Notes under the pieces: model-generated
What the model saw: only the letters and a program-made list of their open reading frames with translations
Database searches by the model: none
Told to the model about the DNA's origin: nothing
Shown: positions 1 through 35,444 of the stretch, piece by piece
How positions within the stretch are numbered: position 1 is the first letter of the stretch
Layout of the letters: every line of letters starts with the position of its first letter
Translations under genes and position numbers: made by a program
Assembly: GCA_964436335.1 (NCBI GenBank)
Contig: CAYTCD010000001.1
Location: 1 to 52,203, forward strand
From: an uncultured Bacteroidaceae bacterium
GTDB taxonomy: Bacteria > Bacteroidota > Bacteroidia > Bacteroidales > P3
DNA: 52,203 bases
Direction of reading: 5' to 3'

Positions 1-704
1 CGGCCGTAAACCGGCTTCAGGATGCTACCGCCTACCCGTACTATCGGATATACTGTATCGCATATTGTTTTCTTCAGACCCGGAGTCGGTTCCACAGGCT
101 CTTCTGTACATGTTACCGTTGCCTTTACCGTTTCGCTCGTGTTGTCTAAAGCACGCTCTGTAGTGTACGTTATTTCACAGTCTGCATTTACTTCACGACA
201 ATTCGTCACCGTACTCTTACTCCGTTCATAAACAATACTCCACGAAGTACCGCCTTTCTTCAAAGTATATACGGTATCACAAATTGTAATCTTGGTATTA
301 CAGTCTATCTTTGGAATTACACGTTCCGAACTATTATCAAGCGAACGAACTACATCATAGCCAACAACCGAACAATTTTCTGCCAACTGTTGACAATTTT
401 CAACCGTATATTTACCTCTTATGAAAGTAGGATTCCATGTGGTTCCTCCCTTCGTTAAAGTATATATTGTATCACAAACAATTTTGGATTCAACGGGTTT
501 ATTGCCAGTACAATCCAATATCACTTTCACTGTATCGGTTTCACCATGAGCATCCAACGCATGTTCAGTGGCATTGATTACACATGCACTATCAACCTCC
601 CGGCAATTCACTAATTTTCCAGCATCCAAGCGTACCACAACCATTTTACCCAAACCTGCATCAAATTGTCTGGTTACCGCAAACACCGTATCGCAAACAA
701 ACTT
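1..704 (-). repeat. Four-Cys repeat modules of about 66-73 aa (at least 4 units) at the C-terminal-most visible part of the giant ORF
   Basis: Units begin at about 704 (KFVCDTVFAVTR..), 485 (KIVCDTIYTLTKGGTTWNPTF..), 284 (ICDTVYTLKKGGTSWSIVYE..) and 64 (ICDTVYPIVRVGG..). Each has the pattern CDT(V/I)(Y/F) ... NC ... C ... (D/T)C. GC is about 35-38 percent in the three 60-nt lines I counted (241-420), against about 50 percent at 1201-1260. Confidence 0.75.
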
Positions 705-3700
705 CTTGCCCTCGCCGGCTTCTTTGCATACGATATCCACTTTGTTCCAACGCAGGTATTCACGGTAGATATCAAGATCCTGATACTTGCCGTCGTATTC
801 AAGGTTGATATAGGGCTGGCTGAAGACACTGTCGCAGAAAGGTGAGATATTGATTGTATCGCGTTCTTTCTGCGTGCCTTGGAAAGGTATCACAAATGCA
901 TGGTAACGAGAGCTATCGGTATAGGTTTCGCTACGGTTATACACCGTATCGGCATAGGTAAAGCAATAGTCAACCGGATTGATGTGGCCGGTGCTGAAAT
1001 GCATCGTATCCGCGTAGCGCCATTCCACATAACTTACATTATCGGTGGTATCGGACTTGAGACCCACTTCGGTAATACAGTAGTCGCATACCGAGGTATC
1101 GTTGAGATAGAGTTCCCTTACATGAACGTTCAAGGTGGGATAACATTCGTGTTCACCGCCACGCAGATAGAGAACAAATCGGGTGTCTTTATTCACCACA
1201 ACAGGGAATATGCTGTCTTGACGGCAAATCTCAACCGTATCGGTGTGGTTGAACCACGGATACATGCAGGCCGAAGTGGCCGGTTCGGGTCCGCTTACAT
1301 AAACATCGAGGCTGGAGCCGGCAAGAATGGTGGTGTCGTAAACACTCAACTTGTAGATATTGCCGCCATAGGTCAGATGCAACGTATCGTAGTCCATACA
1401 GCCTTCCTCATCGTTCCATACGGTAAGATAGAAGGTCTTGTTTTCGGTTACGTTTGCCATAAACGCACTGTCGGTGCTCACCACATTGCCGTCTGCACTA
1501 TCAATCCATTGGTAACGGCTTATCGCTTTAGAAACGTTCTTTACACCTACACCAACCGTTGTGGCTTCACAAACATTGGTATCGCCCGTAGTTTCCACCA
1601 ACAGCCTTTCTTTTACCTTAACCGTTACCGTATCACGGTCAGATCCGCCGCAACTTACCGTTCCTCTCAAGGGATAGATGGTATAGGTGGTGGTTTTGGT
1701 CGGAGCAAGTTTCACATTGTTGCCGTTGGCCACATTTTTGCCCGTACCCAGTTCGAACCAACGCGGCACGGTGCTTCCCGGATTGGCCACTTCGATATAG
1801 GCGGTGTCGTGGTAGCAAATTTCAACCGTATCGGGTATGACACGCGGCGAACCTACAAATTGAACGGTATAGTTCAATGTGGCCATACAGCCTTCTTGGT
1901 TCCAGGCCTTCACGGTGTCGTGGTAAATCACATTGGTATCGCCACCGGGGTTGAGATAGAGCAGACCCACTGCATTGTGTACTGTATCGGAAGTGGAAGT
2001 ATTCCATTCGTAATGGTCCACATTGGTGCCTTTTATGGTAAGTTTCACCTGCGCGTCAGAAGCACCCAGACATTGGGAGGCTCCTTGTACGGAAACATCT
2101 ATCTTGGGCGAGAAGGTCAGCTGAACCGTATCGCTCACTTCCACATGGGCACATTCATCCACACCACGGACGGTGAATATGGCGTAGGCCACCCCTCCAT
2201 TGGCCAACAAGGAAGCGGAGGGATAGAAGAAGGAACTTATCGCATTGTAATTGCTCATCCGGCTGCCTTGCGGATCGGGTACGGTATCGATAATTGTCCA
2301 TTGACAAGCGGAGTACCTGCCTATGCCGGGATAGGCAAGACGCACGGAGGTAAGGGTACAGGAATACACGTCTTCGATAGGCGTGAGATGCGGTTTGGGT
2401 ACCACGCGGATAAAGGCAGAATCGCTATAGACGCAACGGTTGTTGGAGGTCGTAACCTTGTAGTGGTAATGGTTGGTGGTATCCACAGCGGTAATAACCG
2501 AATATACATCGGGCATCACGCTGCTTCCGGCCGTATTGCCTGTCCACTGAATCATATAACCCTGACCTATCAGACCATAGAAATCCACCAACGATATCCG
2601 CGATCCTTCGCACACGGTGGTGTCGCGCAAAATCGGGAGACTATCCCAAACAATGATGGGAATGTCTTGCTGACGGGTATAAGTACAGCCCAATTGGTTG
2701 GTTACCGTAACGCTTACATTGGCCAAAGAATCTCTGGTTCCGGCAACAACGCTGATTATGGAGTCTGTTCCGGTTACCGTACCTAAGGAAGCGGTGCTCA
2801 ACTGCCAACTATAGGTATAGGTTGCCTGACTGTTCTTGCCGGCATTGGAATGAATCGAATCCAAGCCTATGGTAATCGGCTGCATGGCGCAGGCATCACC
2901 CTCGGCAATGATGAAACGCAAGTCGGGTTCAGGCAGCACGGAAATGCGGATGGTGTCGGTATGCTGGCAACCTATGTAGGATGTTCCCGTAACGGTAAGC
3001 AAGGTATCGTTGACAAACGGTCCGGCCGTTATCTTGGAGGCGGCCTTGGTACCGGTGTTCACACTAAGACCGTTCAACACATAACTCTTGGTGTTTTCGG
3101 GCATATCAAGCGCTATGCTGCTATTGTGGCATATCAGGGTATCGGCGCCCAAATCAAAGCTGTAATGACTGCGCACCACGGTAAACTTAACCGGAGGATC
3201 GCTCCAGCACATGGCCTGCGTGGCCACATAACCGAAGTAAACGGTGGTGTCTTTTTCGGGCAACAAGGTAAGGCCTCTCTGGGCGTTGTAGTCGCCCGAA
3301 TCTATCGGAAGGCCTTCCGGAGTTGTCCAACGGTAGGAAACTATCGGCGGGAACACCAACTCTCCGGTGAGCAAGGGCAACGAAATGCTGTCGCCCACGC
3401 AGATAACCGTATCGGCGGGAGTATTCGGACTCACAACAAAACTGTGTTCCACCGTAATGTTCACCACCGTATCGTTGCTACAGCCAGCCACACCGATAAT
3501 GCGTACCGGAATAGCTGTATCCTGCCATGCCGTTACGTTGAAGGTATTGTTGGAAAGACCGTCACTTACAGTGCTGTCGGGCCAGATATAGGTATTCAGA
3601 CCCGTGTTGTCGGTAATTTCGATTTGCGCCGTCTGTCCGGGACACATGCTCAAGGCGTTTTCTCCATTGGGATAGTGTACCTTGAACTTGCCTTTGGCCA

Positions 3701-30700: not shown

Positions 30701-31754
30701 GCGGACGAATCGGCATGGCAACCGTATGATGACCATCCCCGATACCGCCCACAAAAGGAGGTCCGGGAAGATTAGGCATGGAGGCCGAATGATGACCGTC
30801 TCCGATACCGCCCACATAGTTGGCAGGTGGACGAATCGGCATGGACCCCGTATGATGACCGTCTCCGATACCGCCCACATAGTTGGCAGGCGGACGAACC
30901 GGCATGGACCCCGTAATATGGCCATCGCCGATACCCCCTAAATAAGTAGGCTTATAGAACATCGGCGTTCCGGCCGTACTATGACCATCGCCGATACCGC
31001 CTAAATAAGTGGGTTTATAGAACATCGGCGTTCCGGCCGTGCTATGACCATCGCCGATACCGCCTAAATAAGTGGGTTTATAGAACATCGGCGTTCCGGC
31101 TGTGGTATGTCCGTCACCGATACCCCCTAAATAGGTGGGTTTATACATTATCGGCATGGATGCTGTACTATGACCATCTCCGATACCGCCCAAGAAAGTA
31201 GGTTTATGGACAATCAGCATGGTCACCGTGCTATGACCATCCCCAATACCCCCCAGATAGGTGGGTTTATGGATAATCGGCATCGCCGCTGCACTATGGT
31301 GATCTCCGATACCGCCCTTATACGGAGCATTCCGTTTGGGCATATCGGAAGAAGCCACCGCCATACCGCTTCCTCCCACTGCATTGGGCCAGGCGATACG
31401 GTTGGCCGTGCGGAAAGGCGCTACATCAAAGCCGGCCGTATCCACCCCATTGGGTATATAGGTCGGGTTCGCCTCTATATCCACATCCACAGGAGATGCA
31501 GGCACTATATCCAGTTCCTGCGGAGAAAGCAAGGGTTCGTCTAAGGTGATTTCGGAGAAAACAGATTCCGGAACAGGTGTTGAAACAGAAAGATAGGGCA
31601 AAACCACAGGAAGGGAAGCGGCCTCAGCCGGGCTTTCCCGATCGGAACGCGAAGCAGAAAGCCGTGCCACGGTAGCGCCGCCCACGGCAACGCCCGCCAA
31701 CAGCAGACCCGCTATCACAATGTTCCGTATGTTTAATCTTCCCGAAGTTTTCAA
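1..31754 (-). CDS. Giant secreted cell-surface repeat protein (SprB-repeat / Ig-like multidomain adhesin), at least 10,584 codons, 3' end beyond the left window edge
   Basis: The reverse frame whose codons begin on coordinates equal to 2 mod 3 is open from the TAA at 31767-31769 down to coordinate 3. Hand translation stays in one phase (codon GGC at 31316 and codon CTG at 20 are both 2 mod 3). No listed reverse ORF inside 1-31750 is in this phase, and an internal stop would have produced a listed long ORF; it is unlisted because no stop lies in the window. The translation gives repeated 75-90 aa modules with conserved Cys, Gly-Asp and Trp positions, for example DDLRYNWYRNG (about 11330) and HYQWQITADGGATWTDIAGD (about 10500). 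The preferred start is TTG 31754, giving MKTSGRLNIRNIVIAGLLLAGVAVGGATVA. Alternatives are GTG 31718 and the first in-frame ATG at 31364. Confidence 0.9.
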   Translation of the reverse strand, partial: MKTSGRLNIRNIVIAGLLLAGVAVGGATVARLSASRSDRESPAEAASLPVVLPYLSVSTPVPESVFSEITLDEPLLSPQELDIVPASPVDVDIEANPTYIPNGVDTAGFDVAPFRTANRIAWPNAVGGSGMAVASSDMPKRNAPYKGGIGDHHSAAAMPIIHKPTYLGGIGDGHSTVTMLIVHKPTFLGGIGDGHSTASMPIMYKPTYLGGIGDGHTTAGTPMFYKPTYLGGIGDGHSTAGTPMFYKPTYLGGIGDGHSTAGTPMFYKPTYLGGIGDGHITGSMPVRPPANYVGGIGDGHHTGSMPIRPPANYVGGIGDGHHSASMPNLPGPPFVGGIGDGHHTVAMPIRPPANYLGGIADGHYTAAMPARPAPQYIGGIGDGHFSIDMPKPKPWPYMGGIGDGYITMQVEGLFYPLYTGGVSDGFAKRGVPCDTTRYHVYADSMICIGDTLFLKTDSVPSATYSWRGPDGWTSREMNTFRPGFTTKMGGVYTVTIDPGCAGSDDLPVATAVVTPRIPVKVFAVIDSVVPNMPAERMCYGDTAVFKVSGYGWGDSARFEWRVNGNPIEDQDFDSVALLTGVDDGFNITVAVYSSEECVDANPYVSKPIRAAVDEKKTVNVTIASDIDQSLSDLTICEGYPVRISSSYVNQGSRPVFIWLLNNDTILSGSQDYIRLDSLRNGDSIELLLISDIKCVDCRPKRSNVIHFEVKTEPVINVIDDQDINLGESVDLWATGGSEEATYTWTPCASLNTCTGTDVTASPRTSTRYLVKLTEPWRCEVSDTVWVNVFTDVRVLNHPQSTTVCDSSEASFTVKASGAYLSFDWQVDQGDGNWIDISSLPRPNPYSIVQSGEFTSVLYIGKNAATNPDITPLNYGMNQYRYRCQISGVTEKTGKRDTVYSNTPSYLYGDATLYINHLQHAYGTVYSATALPVCEGTQVEFGLRTQNNLAAQATINWLVNGQSKQSGKSTTYKTAVSDGMKVSALITTGYACPAFTPEPTDTLVVKAWHNPRIDAGVDTIVEYNGQGTLQGRLITTGVDSGQSTEMIYSWTPANLISGRADSLYAQTIPVKSRYTFTLTATNVNGCQATDTKVVSIKGGPLRVDGNQNIVVCENDTVLLPVYPYGGTGEYTFSWTAQPKDTNTKVNTAFVSKDTSHISTVSPVGVTYYRVKVSDGVDSVFKTITVTVNKRMLSHPVITGDTNLCANATKGFRLGVKPDAYTGSVRQYRWFVNDAHDARFDGSAYYDVLPADGSHIYCEVTVGYACPLQNPVNTPKVGIHIFDVPTLTSITPDTSVCPGTPVQLAVNGKNIDSISWMPKDDITVGADAKSYRSKVIAQPYQNRTYTVELFTDKGCKETGKVHISVLPQTVATTQNPNIFACENGEARFPVRESGHKLVYDWQKYDAASSTWKSITEAGDKYGDLNTAQLVVYNVSRTENGDKYRLHLSGTCAPDSTSAPMTLNVIDSVYFDMVLVDTPSCQGDVAKVKFITNLTGLQKKVDIVVTGYTTRRFTTRDSVFTLNPVQPGDRIQAFLTPQGIIAQCVNPNPMPSQIIDLGVKESPVISQRSTNPKACATSDGSITLSASRGYTPYTYYFNDTVSQNIINGLPAGMYVAQVIDNNGCKSEKIEISLRDPNAPANPVVTNAGAYCNDKPLPEYLLLRPSIKKGEVRWYSDYTCTNLVHTGDSLAFPTEPGRYIYYLYQIFGNCKSATVKVEVYVGTVPVIDYIDAVVPSSCDRSDGIISIYATGDTTLEYSAFVPQKFGVNPDFIDIPNGTYPLAVRTITGCYAYDTVDLYAFNTPDAPPMLSSDTVYCAGSPRQPLQVKPYRGGVVTWFDDLTLQHAVYKGNPYNINTLATGTYGFSAVESVGTCNSKPSRVNVRILPSINTGVASNVFGCPSGTVTVKALHYDDVNYTWIDPSGMTVSTTDSMTVNVPDSPETYTLHAAREVEGYTCDIVQYVTVQYTTDPVYVDTVVCVGDTVDLTVAAGIDFTWADNSTETSYRVVATAAKQTVKAWISFADGCRMQYVFTVTGRQGTPSYVSIDKNFDLYCTGEKRQLKAKLSNASVPVTLQWYHDYVDIDGATSQILDISDLEPGDYMYVLTATAKEVCTKPRTTADTVRFHVYETPVVNAGPDIDSLSYGEKTVIGLQADVVYGIEPYTYLWKGTGIGSDNSRITVGSERIYNTTVVTLTATDSAGCSASDDLKITVVGGPFRITMDKPYSAVIKDNTICLGDTVLLHVNAAGGSGNYAYSWKELTTGSVLGTKDSLYVAPVSKTQYEVTVINLTGGVSTSADTLRAKVEIGIDLPPVAGYITTPDTTMCADTAYTIKLNAYRGQKIVWEQSIDTVMWNTLSGSADSNRIKGSASTTYYRATVHNGVCPVDVSPILKVKVYEPISNQITGPENTLCPEAEDIRITGNTVVSGGDGTYTYQWQYSASNNASAFLPAPGDTGSASYTWSGSIDYTRYFRRVVYSDGCPFISSVVTVAVYDDSHIGRINGENYVCIDSIGYMSASNTKMETYLWQVASDTLAKPVDWQDIAGAVSSSYNTDPVNDTLHYRVIGSKNGCLPDTTPVFTIIPTEPLPTSVSIVVDTTAACIGDWLVFKVDSVTYPGNKPVYTWFVNGAPLTLPLKQAKDTLAYASKDGRTFYVRSLKPGDSVQCGMASSIGCVTEPLAMSNAIAPTIYLPLVTMAEDDLTFCRRDTVALHADSAIYHTWYYKGTSDKAMLPLVYAPHMLDSYDSVVKVSPIEETTYYVEGIDRHGCKGLDSVTLTPEPLMSVVTPDTLLCAGSKLALRAIPVSTRGVTYSWIEVPSDSTTPTTLPTQLNRNTLTGIAPLDSLTYYIYTINTPRCTFSDTIRVRVEQNTTPTVRIDYTGDVTGDTAHIIECQKVENFFHYISEYGGSAPKYTWYFNGEKVGTDSLFSDHYPYMVDQSTIYVEMESAKRCVTTRTVKSAQMKIHYVKMPEALVSINSNKGLTVCPNEELVLFQAHAPSYDTGIFQWYVKYADSSKFEYVYTGDSLVSRFSTGDQVYCIYVAQDSCIKYSPKRSNTLTFQNYKLWKPTVDIIRLDAGREGKGDTVCEMTEVLFEARLGDAGSDYRFTWLVDGKEAGTPNSLKLTYSDFLADAGDTYRQSTVTARLETKHTCAVPSNINVDDTVVYVRPRKLLGVTIGQDMLMACNSLKKEPVVFTHVYGPLTVSGNAIANNCNNTDWNTGAVSQQTITGNGSVSAKATSVWSYNYAMFGLTSRTEITHYSHINYAVYFENGNLAVYESGVRIGAFGSYTASDELTVEIADSVIRYLKNGVVFYTSQQRDSVGTYRAGFSIYSTCNHCGHAYHDVYSAINSATIEYRASGIVFGSVVVEPPVNTPDYDWKVNGVSFEFGNGKDSLIDHKYRFEENDVVSLLVKSNDVCMERPAAESNPITVRIPDPGDFLRLDDTAYVCLGDSVWLVAGGAISYEWTLAVDCDPDAIHDSSLLVWPKKTTTYRVTGANQDGCTDFKRIVVVVFELPKPNLGPDREVCIGDSLYFSVTAGKEPDSVTNWIYRTEWNFITEGTVYDTLLSQSGNRDSIVERIGKVALPLDSELDNAIRFVAQKSGTLVATMINKLSDCYATDTMKLSVYPLPEVNFTDDTLFVCISKNLDLKDSAYDAAGKSAYRYTWTPASRLTKGTANGSYMIFNSPDTGLYTYFVDVVTPKGCHSYDTVLILNIKQELTAVSTLNRRTVCEGENPVFILEGDWWLPDATATLYRNNKVAGTYTVGREGKSQCDTVTYTGPIANGDVFYFNIVSKNTCLVQKQVNSNRDTLRVVYNTHLASVPDSLCAGSPLVLRAQPVQDSDVHYTWTAFRSERSVDTTIYFEHRNIGSDTNTITVSMPRSPSYFCVEANGGSGCVTRDTVFVGVVKADTLWAELEQELDSCQSPSPQQPAWRSSGSLVYLNNGQIIRDGSTGSGWQELESSTVLSGNFLMRYSVSGKEAPAMVGINYQGRAHWHHSWWYGNWWCNYDADHAFYLSWDNGKPYLQIYERGGQVGTYGEWSAGDILFIIREGGYVSYYKNEVLLRRVKERSPEQPFTPEVSLHTPGTAIDAIHYVELPQIKLSNRAGSISAPMSHKWYRNGKLVSSDSALYSRTIGFIDGDTVVYQVSGMTKCDGLQTVSDTLVIEAPMGYHPVFLTLEHDGQKCENSGYMVRSTVVNRTPSIPDSALRYNWYRGNMLVAAGVRADSMYFDSVGVKEFVWAQVYVDSSYAICAFNSNHNPVPSPKLYLPVTPNGVMGVNIDVYPGEKVCLLSEVRFNATQVISGMSDAGLSPVTEWYLNDKLVFTGQTYVTDSLQDGDSVYAIITASAETSCLDTNRKQTRVVHMEVMPAPILEAYQDTVVKYNSLVDIWSMVTDNWEPGLTYEWYPAFDVQAPWKFTDSAVRVRSKIDHYYTVQAKNKIGCAGNQAGVHVEVLICPQFVLRGSGTDACAGDTSYIYLQVQGFRPYTNLYIWQISHDGGNTWSDVEIDGTEFAQKVGQNDVTLVIPQTKAEYDKAYTMFRCLAVATDSRLDCDTVYSHELYLDVVEYTKPTTHITGDTVVCRNTPVSFTAKGASNPGDYYQWFRGGRMIGGSGNTLYLDSVEGQEKITLVLTVRNNQNRCVDRMRVSDTLEIMANPKPYLTMSPDTVINKGDDALVYGHVEGGQAPYKFHWNGLPSTTLRTPDQDSSLTRNQYYTTRYTLTVTDSNGCSNKGSVMVRVADTCLIQPAIYGPNTICLDSIGTFEAFITGGLANSDLRLSWTSVPPIDTTILMATGYNYNVRAFKPGTYKITLTVSDSSEVVTKVCPLSQRAFSVSKDVTVYPAKHLSVKIDSLMPVCTGTSSDLSAKAYMDGELTAIPVFYTWYSMTDSAISPRMLQKGLYNTCHITNWELSQYIIVEAVLGGDECETGIVAYDTLRPVVNLTPSLVEARGLYIKNQEPCRFDTAAIGLTALFGQADTMGLSYSIDGGKTWSAGNYFKPVDEGTYVPAVKAANGCSFVADYTIHISLPKPKHLPNLQVSGDGGYCTHSPMDALIAYNGDEEAIIGWYADTAGQIALSEGAIGQDSIRLVLPDSVRSTVGTYTYYAIQQAGNCKSEPVELTIDIRERDTVGGFHLRYVQRYNCNKDGQPLMVDVTAEHDTINVTGEYRWYTIPASTVESTEKSALVSVSDSIRVYASFTYINTCSNKEFTLWSDTIPVNVVVLYNSIGEGGAICVGDSAKAENTLAYLIESDEFSYRWEAFYPDTTQENGGMWNVAPGKVDDKDYTVHYSDLLPVEGSTNGRRELRIRRIKSVDTCSNSSNELLYYYEIPAEPSIELSVPEVCTGKTVTAIVTGKNLGDNPLVNWYLNDSLVKTSGNLNENLGVVDSGDLVRVVVYPDYTKVPCPLIDSVMAESVASVTSAIAGKIWIEIADTLFCGTENTFTAHYNTEYSDNPRYRWYHNGVLVPAANNRASYTATVAEGDSVSVTVFAANECPASDSASSPKVGVGRKAKAVSAWAEVENATAAGDSLVLKAYGGDTYRWFDNDTRDVRGLSVTGGEFLFTVTVSKAGFCDTVLTVNTKIPSATLSLSTVCLGWETTGTISGENLGPRPSFDWYVNGVFVGHTDSVYTATVGMLNHEDSVSVVVHVDLAGMGVPQGAAPDSLVLYGIAEVHDRIEGKVWIESSDTLFCKPENTFTARYNVEYSDNPRYRWYHNGVLVPAANNGASYTATVAEGDSISVTVFASNNCPASDSANSEPVAVYKGRSHKVSVNAVDTLLCFNDTMVLRAEGGINYRWDDGSTDSIRRVVATNNKTIYTVTVQGEGFCDTTLQVSVAAHKFPSNTAPARRSIILCGNDTARLAVDLDPGLKVLWSTGDTTTTVDVKVPYRKKDTVFYLNYTDQYGCTYGPDSVRVHTLDSRPLSFTSSSIGLPDSITWRETFDAVTTVEPADKDSIYYVWYINGTYWKSGYGMKDFLSLKGSDFPLSSPYVFQVILQDNGYCNLNRQDTLTDTIKVLQKRFAGINIQSNSTIEGDTLRVCVSENTRMFAATSNAGPVAADGSHKWYIEWFLNDKMVHVGDTVNFGHLTVGSKIYAVLHVDTTEYNYAANDPVTSRVLYVVSIPQPKVEVTLSLKVDTICSTQDYEVRANVVNGGENPQYRWYVNGFLVNVGDEKGNSVPLDAPYLSLLNIKQLSMEEGINYDIVCWVKSSLPCVADSVRNKDLATLVIFPSDTLKVVITPTIDTACLYENGDVVVNMHAEVYGQAKGFNVKDPSLQWYIDGKPIAGATDKDLHYVTRNLTGDELFSVRAFSKYRCTSNSSIVSERSKVFLYPFRAEAGPDDTVYNYADYTVHGDTVTGGVPHWKTGGDGYFLNADTLHATYVLGAGDRKADGIYLYLEVNNKFGCYAIDSMYLSISHCEDYTWQTDLQAMTVCHDQAVTMANKVVAKPTATDAVQTARYMLIALPAGTYPADTLAVIDSVAFGWSGIVDTTRTLVLTGSINSMDCLYTDTIPVTVLPKNEIKVMLTQDGADTCQQHEAKHVNWEIDGSNMPLHWNLNGGTLNHVHCSNMQRVFTSNYGEANTTMRYVATGKERTSTVGFSYEGNNTGNNDTRLDYGFYFTEGRVGVYNNGLVGEYLPGETYLAGDVFTVIRRDHKVYFYVDQRNSHKLMQVIDEPETGWGRRVRFAIGSYDVGSSYNDIVYVNEPAVKVSDSIEFGPLTGKLSYKWWMNDTVVSTASTWDAERFNLQHGDRLKLEVTGITACDTVRATDSITVSKTIDYEPIYVTLVRDSAGTCENDAFTFTATVHNLPAEISQDDLRYNWYRNGQALVKGTKNNVYVIDSVKIGDYVYAEAYITGTTCVLNTENNPAPSHRVTFNLRENKPLEITLVKKTKMDPAICPGSEIHLQAIVNNGGRYEISWYVNDSLYAKGENLNLVPDQDVHIHALVKAYNEDVCLDTTLVSSDTVVVRQALVPVVRAWADTVVNRGSRVALRGEVIENTDAAVRYAWTSNCGGVANASQLNTEITAHNSCMYYLRAYNSLGCVSEPDTVEVNVYDCPSLNSIGVPASVCEGDSATLNITMNGYRPGTNHYQWQITADGGATWTDIAGDARFTATTTATGSLLGISKTDFALDGRNDVRFRCVVTATDSNLMFCPSVITSEIRLTVDTAARQIPTIKLTGPTGICATSTVMSAIYTAQLTPGYEVMWKQNGSGVLEYDGNDHRRGYSVRNGDKVIGVLYGASPCVNRLQISDTLTVTLYQQPTLTAWKDTTVAFNTAAELNALLSNGTGTATYSWTPADKVVNAGTASTATVNLTKSTLFTVSAADSLSCAAEAKVRVIVSDTCLRSVDLVGPESVCVNKTATFTGLVTGGGVLGKYDISWKVSPALDNNDGEEEMNNGGVPVLSFSNATPGDYTVTFTVTDTSAAVRRYCYENGIVLSASKTLHIPVPDTLKVSLAADKDSVCDGTAIILAANATLNSVVAGDAVNYAWYRIRDGRTSYIGSTSPTLRVPDAENNDRYYVEISTKEGCQTDEKVRSNEVPVTVYPVPAPLKPYQVYAHSHLSCVDDTAYIRIDANGATGLLFSIDSGATWQADPMFRNLSEGTYHVMVKGEEGCEAEGVQTVHIEVQPDYRYESLHLSADTVAACVGQALVDVKAYKTDDLGGYIAWFADSTLKKVLAVSAEDADTSSFAPAASIGKIPGLHTFYAARISGECHGKPVPVNYMVSSCGVILEPALDTICPDEEADFYILADAVTRDNAQSWIYQYSADGSFNDAVDVSAAGKIDTIAVSRAGYYRIAYTALSGSVTYSNTARLVVGSYAKLTGKVFVEYPAGSNAVAMCPGGTAGVLVGNVGAGYTIYWPDSSTGNIYRRTSDTTFDVSLKVVSLVGGCAVDTSVTVNVLSRNFVKLGASDTTICLLADETAELVLPRISDSGNVFPPYTNFIWTLNGTTVVAGKYNEQTLNQYPALRVRPQEGVNHYVARAYSLRDCPSVTDTFTVTVHRLVFNLAQDSMAVCEGKTVQLNLPAADSLSINSTVRTAFTSPLQVGPITGDSNLIITLYKGICQSADTLRLHHIPADSLNASLQADVTDCSKTISSAMVWKPGAMGYDAATGTLSHSGSNGWQTNFAADSLRTAAEINYTVSGKEGAMVIGLEYAGAATGLWSKPYSIYLSANGYGDAKLFYLYENGWEVNYSAAGQYRAGDVFTIRRDNAHISYYLNGQLLRSVEEPQAKASVRMLVSASSYNRGGVIDAMQVANASSAKIGTSLYHRYRNLRYQWYVNGIPVSQDSILDTDRHMLVNGDTVVWKVTSYSFCDTLVSADTLVIEGASTYPSIGLNLQQTTQSLCKGESATFKATLTRLPAGLDPSTVRYNWYVNGQQVRKGVIASTYTRQNVQPGDYVYAEAYVWGKYCILNHEDNPACSNIIYLNVDTAETTHFGIEAQPDAEICAGESITFTAMPEGLQHMPQISWYVNGLKVSEGVSLTLQNPADGAEVYAVAIVDADENCAGGDTLTSQSLTLTVHPVPVVDAGTYVKVDRGTRVDLNGQVISGATSVMKYNWAPRTEISGTASTYVVAQNSRTYTFTAVNAYGCEGQDTVSVAVEECPYLAGQSALNAPAVCPGDSLDFTLSVGGYIPAVKAYQWQVSADGTTYSDVSEPLYVNKGTRLHIPSVSLAMNGNYYRAVIIPDLNQTTGCDTLYSLPFRLSVNTDVRNTDLSLSGPATVCADAQEAVYTLTAATRAGDRFFWYLNGILIAQDVKTLRLDPQQLGHGGLLKVEWQTAEDACPAGIRLTDSMEVNVSSPLWITAGNDTVVVKNAQAMLDAWLTGGTAPYVYHWNASVIDPDAASTLTGPMTATTLFTVTGTDANGCEAQAEVQVTVADSCIENVKIARKESEESQQICQDSLVEFKVLVSGGMPGNYTIAWNVTPSLPQTDFVPSQNNGQLWLRPSVAGTYTVTVEVRDTSALAAVHCTAEQLVQRDEITLEVKAKNRLEVRLVQPDSVCADDADALSLQAKAFVNGVETTDVSFHWYRIRGGMVHDLGLGGNIFNPSDKLDDDNYFVNVTATGECLENATVASDTVNSVIYPMPPAIQPSNVIYTPARLCSNDTASIEISVPMYTPSASLSRWAQTLQYSIDGGTTWQASALFKPLPEQSPYQIVIKNQYGCWNDKNKIAVQRSPQALDAWLEAGPNDTIMENETYRVHGDTVVAQGAPQWTTSGSGTFDNANILHPIYTPSAADYAAGSVMLYLSVNSTNECPLKDSLQLFIIRCDSYYIERDKSDSLACTNSPLTLRAALRSANGVSVPSAIYQWNQRRINSFINIHADTGYSSEWTYQHERDYTYYLVVTTENGCVLNDTIRIKMQEPPMAKGKFKVHYPNGENALSMCPGQTAQIEITDNTGLNTYIWPDSTVSDGLSNNTFNVTAWQDTAIPVRIIGVAGCSNDTVVNITVEHSFVVSPNTPADTVICVGDSISLPLLTGELVFPPIVSYRWTTPEGLPIDSGDYNAQRGLTLLPEKDTTVYFGYVATQAMCWSDPPVKFTVVRSHYSFDLGADTLICHNSSIALDMPENTKSYVLNGLSVNTGTKAASKITAGPFVNDTLLTVTGTSYIGCQHTDTIRISVLPEPDLRFIIAEGDACAMQPITIGLDSIHSNAGKNSQATYTYSWQLSTASLGTVTGTDSIISVVAGTRDSLANVSVTVTNQLGCTYTRQQDIPIIVWDSLPILRDTTVCEGSRISLVDFYGLIGQGYMIQWTGNTAGSSVMPDVYSVITAVDTTNHYHYKVTTSNNRCVYSDSAFIRVVPKPHLTPIEDVYSCTLTSVRLAYPGIGRYSACQWTIIDTVPDPQGSRMSNYNAISSFFYPSASLLANGGVAYAIFTVRGVDECAHVEVSDTVQLTFSPKIDVSVQGASQCLGASDAQVKLTIKGTNVDHYEWNTSTSDTVHNAVGLLYLNPGGDTNVIYHDTVKAWNQEGCMATLNYTVQFVGSPRVIPDTVEICYHDTAYIEVANPGSTVPRWFELGTGKNVANGNNVKLAPTKTTTYTIYPLRGTVSCGGSDRDTVTVKVKERLLVETTGDTNVCEATTVGVGVKNVSKAISRYQWIDSADGNVVSTDSAFMANVTENKTFYLTVWNDEEGCMDYDTLHLTYGGNIYKLSVYDTTILAGSSLDVYVSGPEPATSACMYPWFNHTDTVEICRQDSIFPVVVNKDTRFVLYLRGGEHECYPTLNVHVRELYLNDTSVCDYCITEVGLKSDTTDNVSYVEWRYADTMHFSTGHINPVDYCFTYADTVYNRSETYTDSSRYHAFVIPFQGTQKERDTINISPFCDSVFSQPYINLEYDGKYQDLDIYREYLRWNKVDIVCKEAGEGKKFVCDTVFAVTRQFDAGLGKMVVVRLDAGKLVNCREVDSACVINATEHALDAHGETDTVKVILDCTGNKPVESKIVCDTIYTLTKGGTTWNPTFIRGKYTVENCQQLAENCSVVGYDVVRSLDNSSERVIPKIDCNTKITICDTVYTLKKGGTSWSIVYERSKSTVTNCREVNADCEITYTTERALDNTSETVKATVTCTEEPVEPTPGLKKTICDTVYPIVRVGGSILKPVYG
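4272..4490 (-). repeat. SprB-type repeat module (SIDGG.TW variant)
   Basis: Translation: LCSNDTASIEISVPMYTPSASLSRWAQTLQYSIDGGTTWQASALFKPLPEQSPYQIVIKNQYGCWNDKNKIAV. Confidence 0.5.
7027..7527 (-). other. Non-Ig insert module, copy 4 of 4
   Basis: Translation includes NGWQTNFAADSLRTAAEINYTVSGKEGAMVIGLEYAG...FYLYENGWEVNYSAAGQYRAGDVFTIRRDNAHISYYLNGQLLRSVEE. Confidence 0.55.
8913..9107 (-). repeat. SprB-type repeat module (SIDSG.TW variant)
   Basis: Translation: SCVDDTAYIRIDANGATGLLFSIDSGATWQADPMFRNLSEGTYHVMVKGEEGCEAEGVQTVHIEV. Confidence 0.5.
11677..12197 (-). other. Non-Ig insert module, copy 3 of 4
   Basis: Translation includes MRYVATGKERTSTVGFSYEGNNTGNNDTRLDYGFYFTEGRVGVYNNGLVGEYLPGETYLAGDVFTVIRRDHKVYFYVDQRNSHKLMQVIDE. 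Confidence 0.55.
14533..14756 (-). repeat. Internal segmental duplication, copy B
   Basis: The peptide is GKVWIESSDTLFCKPENTFTARYNVEYSDNPRYRWYHNGVLVPAANNGASYTATVAEGDSISVTVFASNNCPASDS. The duplication is also visible in the antisense shadow ORF 14046..15719, where AFGYRGCIR...SVARIIAVF appears twice. Confidence 0.85.
15295..15518 (-). repeat. Internal segmental duplication, copy A
   Basis: These 224 nt align without indels to 14533-14756, with 31 mismatches by my count (about 86 percent identity). The offset is exactly 762 nt (254 codons). The peptide is GKIWIEIADTLFCGTENTFTAHYNTEYSDNPRYRWYHNGVLVPAANNRASYTATVAEGDSVSVTVFAANECPASDS. Confidence 0.85.
16707..16907 (-). repeat. SprB-type repeat module (SIDGG.TW variant)
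   Basis: Translation: PCRFDTAAIGLTALFGQADTMGLSYSIDGGKTWSAGNYFKPVDEGTYVPAVKAANGCSFVADYTIHI. Confidence 0.5.
19488..20015 (-). other. Non-Ig insert module, copy 2 of 4
   Basis: Translation includes GSGWQELESSTVLSGNFLMRYSVSGKEAPAMVGINYQG...YLSWDNGKPYLQIYERGGQVGTYGEWSAGDILFIIREGGYVSYYKNEVLLRRVKE. Confidence 0.55.
21712..22168 (-). other. Non-Ig insert module, copy 1 of 4 (lectin / LamG-like beta-sandwich suspected)
   Basis: Translation includes NCNNTDWNTGAVSQQTITGNGSVSAKATSVWSYNYAMFGL...INYAVYFENGNLAVYESGVRIGAFGSYTASDELTVEIADSVIRYLKNGVVFYTSQQ. It is paralogous to the modules at 19488, 11677 and 7027. Confidence 0.55.
26370..26555 (-). repeat. SprB-type repeat module (divergent)
   Basis: Translation: SCDRSDGIISIYATGDTTLEYSAFVPQKFGVNPDFIDIPNGTYPLAVRTITGCYAYDTVDL. 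Confidence 0.5.
26865..27041 (-). repeat. SprB-type repeat module
   Basis: Translation: CATSDGSITLSASRGYTPYTYYFNDTVSQNIINGLPAGMYVAQVIDNNGCKSEKIEISL. This matches the remembered SprB-repeat pattern C..(S/N)DG.I......G..PY.Y.........L..G.Y.v.v.D.nGC. Confidence 0.6.
30435..31316 (-). repeat. 14 tandem in-frame 63-nt (21-aa) GGIGDGH repeats in the giant ORF
   Basis: Unit first codons (GGC/GGT) fall at 31316, 31253, 31190, 31127, 31064, 31001, 30938 ... 30497, exactly 63 nt apart (31001, 30623 and 30497 verified directly). Example units are GGIGDGHSTAGTPMFYKPTYL, GGIGDGHHTGSMPIRPPANYV and GGIGDGHFSIDMPKPKPWPYM; the last unit is degenerate (GGVSDGF...). Confidence 0.9.
31665..31754 (-). other. 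N-terminal signal peptide or signal-anchor of the giant protein
   Basis: A basic n-region (KTSGRLNIRN) is followed by a 19-residue hydrophobic stretch, IVIAGLLLAGVAVGGATVA, and then RLSAS. Whether it is cleaved cannot be judged by eye. Confidence 0.5.
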
Positions 31755-31802
31755 AACCTCAATTTTTTATATTATTCCGACCTGTCTCTAAACCATCGGA
31801 TA

Positions 31803-33443
31803 CTATAAATCGAACTTTGTTTCGGCCGGGGGGAAACGGCAACCTCTGAACCCAGACCAAGGATTGCGCCTGCCCTCGTTGGCGTTTACCTGCACCGACG
31901 CGGCATATTTGCGGTTGGAAATCTGGAAGCCTCTGAATCCCCCTCCTTTTTCTTCTGGCCAGCAGATAACCCCTGTATTGAAATCATCCACCTGGGCGAA
32001 GCCCCCATCGTCCAACACCCCGTCTCCGTCCTTAGGTATAAAGGAACGGCCTTCGGGTGTACTCACATTGATGCAACGCTCCCAAAGATTGTCGCTCATA
32101 TTCATGATTCCGAAATAGGTGGCACCGGCTTGGTCTCTCGAGGTGGAGTCTTTGGCAAAGGCCCCCACCCGCATCACCCAAGGCGCCTTACCTGTTTCTA
32201 ACTGGCAAGCGGCAGGATCCACAGCTTCTTCGTTAGGCAGACCGGCATTCTTGATTCCTCTTGCATTGGCGGAAATACCTGTCTGGTAACCCCAAGCCAT
32301 CCCTTTACGTAAAAATTGGTGTCCGCGGCAGGCTTTTTCGAATTCCATCTCGGTCATGGGGCGCAGGCAAGCCCAGTCAAGATAGGCCAAACCGTCGTTC
32401 CAATCAAGAAAATTGCAGGCGATATTGCCGCCGTTGTTTTCCATTTCCCATTGTTCGGCCGCAGCCCCTCCGCTGATGCTGTGTCCATATACGGCCCCTT
32501 TGGCCGGATACTCATCGGTTTCGGCCTCGGCCGGAATACGCACCCTTATATAGTTGCGGTATTGCAAAAAATTACTGGTGTAGGGAGCGGCATTGAAAGC
32601 CAAGGTGCCTTTGGCCGCATAGGGAGAAGTGGAAGTTCGCGAAGTTTGCTGTTCGGGCGTGAGGGTGTTGAGAAAGTCGGCATACCCGTGCTGGGTAATC
32701 TCGTATTTCATCATATACACCGCATTATAACCCTTGGGAAAAGTATCGGGAACGGCTGTCCCCAAATAGGTAATGCCTTTTTCTCCTGTTACCTTTCCCA
32801 TCCAGCTTGACTGATTGCTGGGAATGCTGGTTTTGATGATAAGATTGCTGCCATCCATATAGAGGGCGTTGTCGGAAGACCCATCGCCGATAATAAACTG
32901 ATTCTTGGGTACATACACCATCTCTATCGCATATACCGCCACCTGAAACAGGTCATCGTCCAGATAGTCATGATCGCGGTAATTGAATTGCAGGCGGATG
33001 TCTTCGATATAGTTGCTGCCGTTGCCTACCTCTTTGCGGTAAATAAAGAAGCCCGTGGTCTTTTCGCCGAAATCGGTCTGAGAGGTGGCGAATTCGCTCC
33101 ACATAGGTTCGTTGGCACTCCCGATGCTGTGCGGAGCGGCCATATAGGAACCGCCGCCGGTAGCCACAGGCCTGCCTTTTGCCGGAGAAAGATACACATG
33201 CCGCCATTGGCGGGTTTCGGCACTATAACATTTGGCAAACACCCATGCCGCATCCCAATTGCGATGCAGGCGATCTTTCCACGAATGGTCCCAGGAAAGT
33301 GTGAAACGGATATAGGCCATGCCCGTTGCCGTGTCGCGATCCTCCACCGAGACGGTATTTATCTGGATATTATTGCCCCTGACCGTTGTAAATACGCCCA
33401 AAAACAACAAACCACCTATCAATATTTTAATGAAACTTCTCAA
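31803..33443 (-). CDS. Secreted FGE/SUMF1-fold (FGE-sulfatase superfamily) protein, probably non-catalytic; paralogue of 33552..35444
   Basis: 546-aa ORF with signal peptide MRSFIKILIGGLLFLGVFTTVRG. FGE-domain landmarks are EMVYVPKNQFIIGDG, YMMKYEITQHGYADFLNTL, RPMTEMEFEKACRG, GATYFGIMNMSDNLWERC and a C-terminal SGFRGCRF. There is no CxxxxC catalytic pair. Confidence 0.88.
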   Translation of the reverse strand: MRSFIKILIGGLLFLGVFTTVRGNNIQINTVSVEDRDTATGMAYIRFTLSWDHSWKDRLHRNWDAAWVFAKCYSAETRQWRHVYLSPAKGRPVATGGGSYMAAPHSIGSANEPMWSEFATSQTDFGEKTTGFFIYRKEVGNGSNYIEDIRLQFNYRDHDYLDDDLFQVAVYAIEMVYVPKNQFIIGDGSSDNALYMDGSNLIIKTSIPSNQSSWMGKVTGEKGITYLGTAVPDTFPKGYNAVYMMKYEITQHGYADFLNTLTPEQQTSRTSTSPYAAKGTLAFNAAPYTSNFLQYRNYIRVRIPAEAETDEYPAKGAVYGHSISGGAAAEQWEMENNGGNIACNFLDWNDGLAYLDWACLRPMTEMEFEKACRGHQFLRKGMAWGYQTGISANARGIKNAGLPNEEAVDPAACQLETGKAPWVMRVGAFAKDSTSRDQAGATYFGIMNMSDNLWERCINVSTPEGRSFIPKDGDGVLDDGGFAQVDDFNTGVICWPEEKGGGFRGFQISNRKYAASVQVNANEGRRNPWSGFRGCRFPPAETKFDL

Positions 33444-33488
33444 TTTTGCTATTATTTAACATACCTTAGAAAGAGCATGAACAGAAAG

Positions 33489-33519
33489 ATATGTGAACCG
33501 ATAGAATCGGTCCACATAT
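33489..33519 (-). promoter_or_regulatory. Intercistronic RNA hairpin between the two FGE-like genes
   Basis: ATATGTGAACCGAT-aga-ATCGGTCCACATAT forms a 14-bp stem with a 3-nt loop. The single A-C mismatch on the forward strand becomes a U-G wobble on the reverse-strand transcript. No clear U-tract follows. Confidence 0.4.
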
Positions 33520-33551
33520 TCTTCCGTCTAAAATAGCAACGGCAATTAATT

Positions 33552-35444
33552 TTATTGTTTTGCCTTATCGGTACGCACACAACGAATACCCTTTAATCCG
33601 TAATAATTGTTAACGTAAGAACGGGTTGTCGGAACTTCCGAATGGTTCCAACGATAACGCGACGAAACCATACCAGCCAAAAGGTGGGGATGTGTAGCCA
33701 CTGGAAAATAAGTTGTATTTGTTGTAAAGAACATTCCCCGCGGAATAAAAATCTGCCAAGTTGTCCCCATCTTCAACCAATCTGTGTTGACAGCATCGCC
33801 ATTTCCATCCAAAAGCCCGCTACCGTGGGTTCCCACAAACAACCGACCCGGCGCATAAGCAACAGATATACACATTTCTGCCACATTATCACTCATATTC
33901 ATTACTCCCCAGTAACTAGCACCTGAAGCAGCCCTAGTAGTAGTTGAATCTGCAAAAATCCCTACACGGAGAGGCCCAATAAAGGAAGAATTTTGCCACC
34001 ACAACGCTGGTTGTTGATTCCACCATGAATATGTATTCCAATTAAGTCCTGCAACACCCGCATTATAAGAACCTCGAGGCCTTTCGGTTCCCGTAAGACC
34101 ATCATCCAAAGTGATATGTACATTCGAAAAGAACACTCTTGTTACAGACCCCCAAGTATATTCATCATTTACAGGTTCACGAGGACCACGGCAAGCTTTT
34201 TCATATTCCAATTCCGTCATGGGGCGAAGTCCCGAAAACTCGGCATAGGCCAATAAATCAAAAATTGTAACAAAATTCATTGCCACATCCTGACCATCAA
34301 GATTACGCGTAAGGGTTCGGCCCAAACATTTTCCCGTTGAGTCTTTGCCTCCGTCATAACAAATTTGATCAGTTTGATTATAATTGTTGTTATTATTCAT
34401 ATCACAACCAAACACCACAGTAGGTGCCGCCTGTTTTATCTTAATTCCATTTCTAAAATGCGTGGGAGACAACCATGCCGCATTCCCATATGGTCCATAA
34501 GCATAGCCATTTACCGTCAAAGAATTCAAATCATTATCTATACGCGTATTCTGTTGCCCTTGATTCAAGGTATTGAGAAACTCCACATAGGCTTCCTGTG
34601 TCATTTCGTATTTCATGATATAAAAAGCCTGATAACCTTTAGGAAAAGATCCCGGAATAACGCCGGCCACAATAGCATTTCCTTGTGCCCAAAGCGTATT
34701 GGTTGCCGCACTATTGGCCACCACAATAGAGTCTTCGCCCCTCACAACCATAGGTGTACCGAAAGTGGCACCATTGGTGGTAAAAGAACCCACTTGCCAA
34801 GCCGCCGTACCTTTCCCGCCCAAATAATAGGCACCTTTAGGCACATATACCATTTCCACCGCAAAGACCTTTACCACCAAATCATCGCCCGGTACAAAAC
34901 CTTGGCTACCATAATTCCATTTAAAAGTAACTCCCGGCACCACCACATGGCCGGCACCATAGTCTTTACGATATAAAAACCATCCCACAACACATCTCAC
35001 CGATTTTTCATCCGGATCCATCCGCCATTGCTTCCAAGCCATAGAATAACCCGGCTCCAGAACCATGGTTTGTTTAGTGTTTTTTCCTTCCCTATCAGAA
35101 ACATAATAGGTAGCATCTTTATTTACCGCATCCGTAGCTTTCGTGCTTCCTGGAATCGCACCGGCCGAATCCAAATAAACGTGATTCCAAGCCTCTCCAT
35201 CCCAACACTTTACAAAAATCCAGGCCGCATCGTGGTTCTCGGGCTTGGTGGTTTTCCAACTGTTGTCCCACGCGATATCAAACTTAATCTGAATCGTTTT
35301 TTTAAGCGTATCTTCATTCGCCAAAACCGGTTTTCCGATAATACGGATGTTGTTGGCCGATACATACGTAAACAGGGACAAACCCAGCATACAGAAGAGA
35401 CACAATGTGCGGAACGCACGTGTCGAAAGGCTGTTTATTTTCAT
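33552..35444 (-). CDS. Secreted FGE/SUMF1-fold (FGE-sulfatase superfamily) protein, probably non-catalytic; paralogue of 31803..33443
   Basis: 630-aa ORF with signal peptide ending ...LFTYVSA. Landmarks are EMVYVPKGAYYLGG, YIMKYEMTQEAYVEFLNTL, RPMTELEYEKACRG, GASYWGVMNMSDNVAEMC, SSRYRWN and GIRCVR. It shares an N-terminal domain with the 546-aa protein (NNI.I...WD.SWK...DAAW.F.KC...W.HVYL). Confidence 0.88.
   Translation of the reverse strand: MKINSLSTRAFRTLCLFCMLGLSLFTYVSANNIRIIGKPVLANEDTLKKTIQIKFDIAWDNSWKTTKPENHDAAWIFVKCWDGEAWNHVYLDSAGAIPGSTKATDAVNKDATYYVSDREGKNTKQTMVLEPGYSMAWKQWRMDPDEKSVRCVVGWFLYRKDYGAGHVVVPGVTFKWNYGSQGFVPGDDLVVKVFAVEMVYVPKGAYYLGGKGTAAWQVGSFTTNGATFGTPMVVRGEDSIVVANSAATNTLWAQGNAIVAGVIPGSFPKGYQAFYIMKYEMTQEAYVEFLNTLNQGQQNTRIDNDLNSLTVNGYAYGPYGNAAWLSPTHFRNGIKIKQAAPTVVFGCDMNNNNNYNQTDQICYDGGKDSTGKCLGRTLTRNLDGQDVAMNFVTIFDLLAYAEFSGLRPMTELEYEKACRGPREPVNDEYTWGSVTRVFFSNVHITLDDGLTGTERPRGSYNAGVAGLNWNTYSWWNQQPALWWQNSSFIGPLRVGIFADSTTTRAASGASYWGVMNMSDNVAEMCISVAYAPGRLFVGTHGSGLLDGNGDAVNTDWLKMGTTWQIFIPRGMFFTTNTTYFPVATHPHLLAGMVSSRYRWNHSEVPTTRSYVNNYYGLKGIRCVRTDKAKQ

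Follow-up and report, generated by a model that had tools for sequence, protein, structure and literature searches.

A three-gene surface module with two FGE-like proteins represents a cassette for motif-tagged T9SS cargos that is widespread in Bacteroidota

The window analyzed here covers the initial 52,203 nt of a metagenomic contig of 139 kb (CAYTCD010000001.1) from an uncultured Bacteroidaceae bacterium. An earlier sequence-only reading had singled out three genes on its reverse strand, and these are present in the sequence in the order described: a gene for a 630-amino acid (aa) protein resembling formylglycine-generating enzyme (FGE) (paralogue 1, ATG start, 33552..35444, minus strand), a gap of 108 nt, a gene for a 546-aa FGE-like protein (paralogue 2, TTG start, 31803..33443, minus strand), a gap of 48 nt, and a giant surface-protein gene (3..31754, minus strand). 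[quoted passage not shown] The FGE-like family and the motif are tightly coupled genetically across the phylum, both proteins of the pair are Sec-exported, and most partners bear T9SS sorting domains. We class the FGE-like protein as an accessory to T9SS surface proteins in which the FGE fold has been put to a new use. The new part is the pairing of the FGE-like family with the motif, which is so far unnamed; no description of an FGE-like/T9SS-cargo pairing was found in the literature searched.

FGE-like genes precede T9SS cargos that carry a glycine-rich motif

Gene neighborhoods were surveyed at 80 loci with FGE-like family genes, most of them from metagenome-assembled genomes, whose labels may be wrong and whose gene calls are crude. 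A regular expression for the glycine-rich motif ([FYWH].G[GAS].[GASYDN].G, applied to the first 120 residues) matched 47 of 75 genes immediately downstream of the FGE-like genes, against 8 of 655 other genes of the same 80 loci (Fisher p = 9e-46). By a hand estimate that allowed for mis-called starts and early-ending loci, about 56 of 73 usable loci had a motif partner. The downstream products typically begin, just past the signal peptide, with QYSGGIGRGDA, QYTGGNGRGD, IFYGGDADGF or QFKGGRADGF, and the median gap between the FGE-like gene and its partner is 35 nt (typically 14–78 nt). Two or more family genes stood in tandem at 15 of 79 loci, with a maximum of four in one locus. A cultured bacterium, Brumimicrobium salinarum LHR20 (L065), is among the carriers of the cassette.

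Motif copies per partner ranged from one, in half of the cases, to 14. Complete partners were 137–1,395 aa long, with more than 10,000 residues reached once the giants are included. A sorting domain was found in 25 of 36 complete partners (23 type A and 2 type B). The partners have only the motif and the sorting domain in common, and their passengers vary (fn3, BACON, LamG, Ig and SprB repeats); the smallest, at 137–139 aa, are essentially a signal peptide, the motif and the C-terminal sorting domain (CTD). A minimal pair of this kind is found at L058, with an FGE-like protein of 508 aa and a partner of 137 aa. The motif subtype (GRGD versus GDG followed by an aromatic residue) tracks the clades of the FGE-like proteins, while passenger size and domains vary.

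As the regular expression had been derived from the same data, an independent reverse test was run. A HMMER search with the first 470 residues of the giant gave matches to 33 proteins of 260–670 aa, the majority of which bore both repeats and a type A sorting domain. The contigs of seven matches were examined. An FGE-like gene of the family, recognized by the family hidden Markov model (HMM), was adjacent in 7 of 7: in six it lay immediately upstream (from a 1-base overlap to a gap of 41 nt) and in one immediately downstream. The matches of the protein search with the giant's N-terminus were small proteins only, with no giant orthologue among them.

The sequence-only reading had proposed that the FGE-like pair is dedicated to giant SprB-type adhesins, and had asked whether homologues always sit next to giant genes. 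At about 70 loci with distant family members (approximately 30–35% identical) there was usually no giant gene, and the idea that the family always lies beside giant genes was rejected, as it holds only in a close Bacteroidales clade. Most family members precede T9SS cargos of 137–1,395 aa, so the giant size is incidental and the dedication to giants fell away. A functional tie of the FGE-like genes to the giant itself gained strong support, now from a family-wide link to a motif that the giant holds in 13–14 copies.

In many of the small motif proteins, the motif is separated from the sorting domain by a conserved domain of about 100 aa (PLPV.LLSF.G...L.W.T..E.N...F.VERS.DG..F..IG...G.GNS..Y.F.D..P..G.NYYRL), which had no Pfam or NCBIfam match. 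It was seen at loci L022, L032, L033, L035, L064, L076 and L080, and in proteins P0123–P0153.

Regulatory genes were also noted near the pair. In three of the seven reverse-test contigs, genes for a TPR-HisKA_3 kinase and for a regulator of LuxR type (Response_reg plus GerE) lay just upstream; in another of these (L093) there was a regulator only, about 3.4 kb upstream at the edge of the locus and separated by other genes. Among the 80 GTDB loci, response-regulator homologues occurred near the family gene in 10, and were adjacent upstream in the two that were checked. The two-component genes are at L083:1727-4412, L086:2164-5929, L087:1980-4438, L021:6864-9729 and L038:7167-9887. This suggests a dedicated two-component control of the FGE-like/motif-protein pair in distant loci. 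The window has no such kinase/regulator pair; upstream of its module lie a DUF3078 gene and the terminator of that gene.

The three-gene order recurs in related Bacteroidales

The order FGE-like (about 630 aa), FGE-like (about 550 aa) and giant recurred at six loci from uncultured gut-type Bacteroidales (L003–L006, L089 and L090), and at L007 the contig ends after both FGE-like genes. Identity to the window's paralogue 1 was 50–65% in the GTDB loci carrying the trio, and the giant orthologues held 12–14 motif copies. At L004 a gene for a 171-aa TPR protein (11883-12395) lies between the FGE-like genes, and at L090 the second FGE-like gene is separated from the giant by a called 239-aa minus-strand open reading frame (ORF; 13924-14643), which may be spurious.

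Co-transcription of the three genes had been proposed from the sequence, and it is still an inference. The genes form a conserved unit, but the argument that neither gap holds a hairpin failed for the 108-nt gap. There, a stable 22-bp interrupted hairpin was found at 33528-33480 (33480..33528, minus strand); folding of the entire gap gave -37.1 kcal/mol (z = -6.5), and the T-rich tail after the hairpin, CTTTCTGTTC, is weak. Hairpins also follow directly after the stop of the first FGE-like gene at L005:3385-3417 (z -5.3) and L003:11962-12004 (z -4.1), with a weaker one at L007:1892-1931 (z -2.6, 3 of 200 shuffles folding as well). In the window, L005, L003 and L007 the position of the hairpin is conserved and the sequences are unrelated. 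This suggests a partial terminator or attenuator, giving more of paralogue 1 than of the downstream products, or an RNA-stability element, rather than a junction without structure.

At the 5' boundary of the module, the strong terminator that had been described for the upstream gene was confirmed. This intrinsic terminator of the DUF3078 gene (35785-36741) lies at 35744..35777 on the minus strand and consists of a 15-bp stem with 8 GC pairs followed by a T-run, TTTTTTATTT (-27.3 kcal/mol, z = -6.65). The AT-rich spacer between it and paralogue 1 (35445..35743, minus strand) is the presumed promoter region. A sigma-70 scan of this spacer stayed at chance level, with only a 9-of-12 match at 35574-35546, and the Bacteroidetes -7 motif TAnnTTTG had no exact minus-strand match there and was not enriched in the window.

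The giant itself is made up, as a mosaic, of divergent Ig-like and PKD-like domains. Its minus-strand frame is open from 31766 to base 3 (10,588 codons with no stop), and from the first start codon, a TTG at 31754, it encodes at least 10,584 aa, the 3' end being lost at the contig end. As a complete orthologue within a 476-kb contig is 10,624 aa long, only tens of residues are absent from the window's giant. The recognizable domains are repeated Ig_7 ('CHU_C-associated'), PKD-like Ig folds and Ig_3, and the repeats are heterogeneous. The SprB repeat (PF13573) was not found above threshold: the first 2,500 aa held a single match of 18.9 bits (threshold 28), and the rest of the protein had no match. 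The description of the giant as an SprB-repeat protein was therefore weakened, with Ig_7 and PKD-like folds taking its place.

This domain content bears on a comparison with sprCDBF of F. johnsoniae. In both loci, accessory genes are found immediately upstream of the gene for a giant surface protein of T9SS type, with which they are presumably co-expressed (PMC5879114). The paralogues could be orthologues of SprC and SprD, and the locus a Bacteroidales version of that operon. Here, too, a giant adhesin-like gene is directly preceded by two accessory genes of the same strand, an arrangement conserved in six loci; sprCDBF is described as co-transcribed, with SprC and SprD supporting SprB (PMC5879114), and sprC falls within a 2.1-kb fragment (PMC9870892), which is compatible with a protein of about 500–650 aa. 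However, none of the best 240 relatives listed was named SprC or SprD, and most family members stand beside small type A CTD cargos rather than in sprCDBF-like operons. In addition, the window's accessory proteins are paralogues of one another, and the giant is no clear SprB-repeat protein, being of Ig_7/PKD-like type with no SprB repeat above threshold. The likeness seen is one of gene order, and we consider orthology very unlikely.

The FGE-like proteins lack the catalytic cysteines of FGE

Paralogues 1 and 2 are 30% identical over 544 aa (E = 6e-63), score 834 and 532 bits, respectively, against the family HMM, and both align with the family over their full length. Paralogue 1 consists of a signal peptide, an N-terminal beta-sandwich and an FGE-fold domain without catalytic cysteines; paralogue 2 has the same architecture with a shorter C-terminal region.

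The Sec signal peptide of paralogue 1 (aa 1–30; 35355..35444, minus strand) has its predicted cleavage site ahead of NN(I/V). The signal peptides end at YVSA before NNIRI in paralogue 1 and at TVRG before NNIQI in paralogue 2, and are of the signal peptidase I (SPase I) type. A30, N31 and N32 are near-invariant in 62 family members, and the signal helix (residues 6–22 of paralogue 1) had a low predicted local distance difference test score (pLDDT) in AlphaFold2 (AF2). No lipobox cysteine was read at the cleavage site of either protein, and Pfam and NCBIfam scans found no T9SS sorting domain in either. The public European Nucleotide Archive (ENA) call of paralogue 2 starts 14 codons later (532 aa; window 33401-33443), and most of the signal peptide is lost; the TTG at 33443 (546 aa, Logan call) retains the signal and agrees with the family alignment.

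The AF2 model of paralogue 1 (pLDDT 87, predicted TM-score (pTM) 0.89) has an all-beta N-terminal domain at about aa 31–205, followed by an FGE fold. This family-specific beta-sandwich (aa 31–205; 34830..35354, minus strand) was modeled with pLDDT above 90 and carries the motif F..(A)W(D/E)NSW....N.DAAW(I/V)F.K; no Pfam model covers it and no NCBIfam model was found for it. Searched alone, it gave 1,327 cluster representatives at 50% identity, and among the 150 best listed it nearly always begins in the first ~60 residues of the protein, mostly in proteins of 450–750 aa. Searches with full-length family members gave more than 4,000 clusters at 90% identity. Two protein searches, one of them seeded with a Flavobacteriales member, returned about 8,800 relatives above thresholds, the best 240 of which, where named by the source, had generic FGE/SUMF1 names only.

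Evidence for the FGE fold came from sequence and structure. The Pfam FGE-sulfatase model (PF03781) scored 41.6 bits in the 630-aa protein and, as a borderline match, 23.8 bits in the 546-aa protein, against a cut-off of 23.3; in paralogue 1 the match covers aa 272–526 (E = 1.5e-10). A profile search of Protein Data Bank (PDB) sequences found FGE at E = 2e-7. In Foldseek, the nearest PDB structures to the paralogue 1 model were the FGEs of T. curvata, human and S. coelicolor (target-normalized TM-score about 0.5, probability 1.00), with CalU17 and OvsA also among the closest.

In true FGE, the conserved copper-binding Cys pair sits in a C-terminal segment after an RGGS[WY] motif. The Pfam alignment covers model positions 35–190 of 255 (ending at 190–195), short of this catalytic C-terminal part. 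No column with at least 30% cysteine, and no conserved Cys pair, was found in the catalytic C-terminal region among the 62 family members. The C-terminal region reads PRGMFF...MVSSRYRW in paralogue 1 and KGGGFRGFQISNRKY in paralogue 2. Because the Pfam match ends early and the relatives have no conserved Cys pair, both FGE-like proteins are pseudoenzymes as regards FGE chemistry. The earlier description of the two small proteins as FGE-fold proteins without catalytic cysteines is thus borne out by Pfam, the structure matches and the 62 relatives.

FGE (SUMF1) and pFGE (SUMF2) have the same fold as the window pair, and FGE reads a short linear motif in secreted proteins. pFGE lacks the catalytic cysteines, and 1y4j, which we take to be its crystal structure, was among both the sequence and the structure matches of the FGE-like protein. 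The window pair differs from FGE in the absence of the catalytic Cys pair, and from FGE and pFGE in its added N-terminal domain, Sec export and T9SS cargo neighbors; its partner motif is Gly-rich, with no Cys or Ser target.

These properties have to be set against the possibility that the FGE-like proteins are periplasmic enzymes which modify the Gly-rich motif before T9SS export, the minimal 137-aa partners being little more than a modified peptide and an export domain. FGE acts on the CxPxR motif of unfolded sulfatases, which offers a parallel. The arrangement seen resembles a modifier gene beside the gene of its substrate, whose mature N-terminus bears a short linear motif, and one or two FGE-like genes for 1–14 motif copies would also fit. 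The closest structures are those of real enzymes (FGE, CalU17 and OvsA), invariant Arg, Glu and His residues are numerous in the FGE-like domain, and the database names of the family are 'SUMF1/EgtB/PvdO family nonheme iron enzyme' and 'formylglycine-generating enzyme'. Nonetheless, the copper-binding Cys pair of FGE is absent family-wide and the Pfam match ends ahead of the catalytic part. The conserved residues of the motif are Gly, aromatic and Asp, with neither Cys nor Ser as a target in the FGE sense, and the fusions of some family members to lectin, cadherin, NHL and toxin-type modules would be unusual for a periplasmic modifier. On balance we regard an enzymatic role as rather unlikely.

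NCBIfam includes GldJ and GldK models. No NCBIfam family matched either FGE-like protein at E <= 0.01, while PorG in the same window scored 172 bits. PorK and GldK were absent from the PDB sequence matches at E <= 1 and from the top 50 Foldseek matches. GldJ, GldK and PorK are FGE-fold envelope proteins of T9SS-bearing Bacteroidota without FGE chemistry (PMC12635249), and the sequence-only reading had likened the window pair to them. The analogy stood as to the fold without FGE chemistry and the use in the envelope, and failed on the missing NCBIfam match, the lack of a lipoprotein signal and the nearest structures, which are true FGEs and not PorK. The sequence relationship goes no further than the Pfam domain. 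The window pair also has the extra N-terminal beta-sandwich, and its family lies beside individual cargo genes, often in tandem, and not in gldKLMN. Identity with GldJ, GldK or PorK was ruled out on the NCBIfam result, the absence of a lipobox, the nearest structures and the absence of a gldKLMN/porKLMN context.

The broader suggestion, that the pair are core T9SS or gliding-machine components of this type which by chance lie beside a cargo gene, could appeal to the shared fold class and to the T9SS in the genome, with PorG and a type A cargo nearby. Against it, besides the results above and the SPase I-type signals, the family is multi-copy, patchy and linked to specific cargos, and the neighbors are the DUF3078 gene and the giant rather than gldLMN-type genes. 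We consider this highly improbable.

A near-invariant internal segment of the FGE-like proteins, [FY].G.HG.G.L..NG.A, was also noted; in the window it reads FVGTHGSGLLDGNGDA (33810-33860, aa ~533–549 of the 630-aa protein). Its resemblance to the partner motif [YF]xGGxGDG could be due to chance, or could hint at self-mimicry or templating.

A glycine-rich repeat array at the N-terminus of the giant

In the giant, the motif is part of an array of 13 strict and 1 degenerate 21-residue repeats (..P.[YF].GGIGDG[HFY].., aa 145–427; 30465..31337, minus strand), with the unit KPTYLGGIGDGHSTAGTPMFY. Strict matches were spaced every 21 aa over aa 166–418, and none occurred elsewhere in the giant's 10,584 residues or in the other ORFs of the window. 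At the DNA level the repeats are 63-nt tandem units. The repeat region had no Pfam or NCBIfam match. Three consecutive repeats (window 30917-31281) are identical as protein (MFYKPTYLGGIGDGHSTAGTP), their 63-nt units matching at 83%, which on the sequence suggests a recent expansion or homogenization of the array. The second half of the array forms a separate subtype, RPPANY.GGIGDGHH.

AF2 modeled the array as three short strands per 21 residues, with pLDDT 70–82 for the first seven repeats and low values for the rest (overall 55). Foldseek returned very weak matches only (none with E below 0.4). Most were to folds of the beta-helix or solenoid kind, among them the CsgA fibril, FapC and bactofilin. 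From these models a beta-solenoid is plausible, if tentatively so, for multi-copy arrays. Single-copy partners cannot form a solenoid, which suggests that the unit serves primarily as a short motif for recognition.

A comparison can be drawn with curli (CsgA/CsgB with CsgC, CsgE and CsgF) and Fap, where Gly-containing repeats of 19–23 residues are stacked as a beta-solenoid and accessory genes lie alongside; the giant's repeats have 21 residues and predicted stacked strands. In contrast to these systems, export here is by T9SS sorting domains, the accessory fold is FGE-like and half of the partners hold a single repeat, and neither structure nor sequence gave a significant match to the giant's repeats, the CsgA and FapC matches being weak (E above 0.4).

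CsgC and CsgE serve the curli subunits, and the FGE-like proteins might in a similar way be dedicated periplasmic chaperones or holdases, retained in the periplasm and capping solenoid-prone repeats until export. The regular stack predicted for the repeats and the kinds of fold that they weakly matched would agree with such a role. So would the signal peptide and missing CTD of the FGE-like proteins, and the tight gene order with its short gaps. However, the single-copy partners, half of the total, would form no solenoid on their own and the minimal partners contain nothing more to chaperone. The extracellular-type fusions of long-form family members oppose a purely periplasmic role, and the structural evidence is weak, given the overall pLDDT and the lack of any fold match with E below 0.4. 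A holdase role seems to us unlikely, and more so than modification of the motif.

Docking on the motif as a possible function

Our leading reading, tentative and rated a little short of an even chance, is that the FGE-like proteins are Sec-exported, non-catalytic partner subunits that would recognize the giant's 21-residue repeats by docking on the motif, and that the trio is a scaled-up cassette. In this proposal, drawn from sequence features, a cassette would comprise one to four FGE-like genes and then a T9SS cargo with 1–14 motif copies at its mature N-terminus. The fold of true FGE clamps a short linear peptide, and it may have been repurposed from peptide clamping to docking on the motif. 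FGE-like proteins, which have no CTD, would thereby be loaded onto a carrier with a T9SS sorting domain, either in the periplasm for co-export or at the surface. In the case of the giant, two types of paralogue on up to 14 sites would build a multivalent head on a fibre of more than 1 MDa, at the end most remote from a C-terminal anchor. Physical binding, the cell compartment in which it would occur and an adhesive role are what we infer from this arrangement.

Docking is favored because the FGE fold is a peptide-binding scaffold that has already been reused structurally in Bacteroidota (PorK, PMC12635249), and because the minimal partners look like pure carriers, with little beyond a tag and an anchor. 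It is favored, too, because the motif subtypes follow the FGE-like clades while the passengers vary. A further argument comes from long-form family members, which carry C-terminal LamG, cadherin-like, Lcl_C, DUF285, NHL propeller, Gly_rich_2 or pretoxin-HINT modules, and none of which has a T9SS sorting domain (examples are L019:9950-13864, L048:8490-11270 and L060:2308-4926, and proteins P0300, P0338, P0356, P0376 and P0400). Such extracellular-type modules without a sorting domain fit a carrier that supplies the CTD in trans.

Several points weigh against docking. Roughly a quarter of the family loci have no motif partner, and several of these are on contigs labeled non-Bacteroidota. The binding of the FGE-like protein to the motif is itself a proposal, and no precedent for T9SS co-export or piggyback of a CTD-less partner was found in the literature searched. 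The ratio of one or two FGE-like genes to up to 14 motif copies is no less in keeping with an enzyme than with a stoichiometric binder, and the FGE-like domain has numerous invariant charged residues that could form an active site. The correlation of clade and motif may come from plain co-inheritance of neighboring genes. Finally, no type A or type B sorting domain was found in the last 588 residues of the window's giant, whose C-terminus lies off the contig.

The contigs labeled Verrucomicrobiota, Omnitrophota, Planctomycetia or Gemmatimonadota are those of L016, L017, L025, L046, L055, L067, L068, L073, L077 and L078, and mostly had no downstream motif partner. These members could reflect mis-binning, or a family branch whose function does not involve T9SS cargo.

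Other systems offer parallels for docking on a repeated motif. That with cohesin-dockerin scaffoldins is conceptual only: there is no homology, and binding here is proposed from gene pairing, yet in both a repeated module on an anchored carrier could recruit separate subunits, some of them fused to varied domains. FGE-like type VI secretion system (T6SS) immunity proteins use a non-catalytic FGE fold as a specific protein binder (bioRxiv 10.1101/2021.05.21.445229). Their role is toxin neutralization, whereas no toxin-immunity context was seen at the window locus.

If docking, co-export, chaperoning or modification of this kind were true, the conserved N-terminal tag and the linked FGE-fold partner would make up a second, cargo-specific layer of T9SS cargo recognition. 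To our knowledge, the C-terminal sorting domain is at present the sole explanation for how T9SS cargos are recognized. A bolder form of the proposal is an unrecognized accessory layer of the T9SS across Bacteroidota: an N-terminal tag, [YF]xGGxG(R/D)G(D/aromatic), on CTD carriers would be read by a CTD-less, non-catalytic FGE-fold protein, which would be displayed or exported in trans with its fused modules, the giant then being a fibre of more than 1 MDa with up to 14 heads. Such trans-acting sorting through an N-terminal tag would be a categorically new reading, and we think it somewhat improbable.

If true, a second layer of cargo recognition would also give a testable function to well over 1,000 clusters (1,327 at 50% identity for the N-terminal domain, and thousands at 90%), for which the annotations SUMF1/EgtB/PvdO or FGE are probably misleading. 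For the giants of uncultured gut Bacteroidales, the repeat array and the two small proteins would be a candidate functional tip. Repurposing of the FGE fold in Bacteroidota envelopes would also extend past GldJ, GldK and PorK.

Other features of the giant gene and its neighborhood

The N-terminus of the giant has a basic and hydrophobic segment (31650..31754, minus strand) that reads KTSGRLNIRN-IVIAGLLLAGVAVGGATV-ARLSAS and is conserved in the orthologues at L003–L006; by its sequence this is a predicted Sec signal peptide or signal anchor. Scanning metagenome sequences with the C-terminal 400 aa of the window's giant gave no relatives.

Long plus-strand ORFs inside the giant gene (window 879-30248; for example 6909-11585, 1,558 codons) were considered as genes and rejected as a codon-aligned antisense frame. 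They arise because the giant nearly never uses TTA, CTA or TCA (42 of 10,588 codons), and the same by-product was seen at L003, L004 and L006.

The presence of a T9SS in this genome, claimed earlier from a type A sorting domain, gained a second line of evidence. The domain is on the product of a plus-strand gene at 36980..40789, a type A cargo of 1,269 aa with choice-of-anchor J and CBM_4_9 domains, in which a motif scan found no match to the Gly motif. Further along the plus strand, 41777..42679 encodes PorG, an outer-membrane component of the T9SS (NCBIfam NF052316, 172.5 bits against a cut-off of 130).

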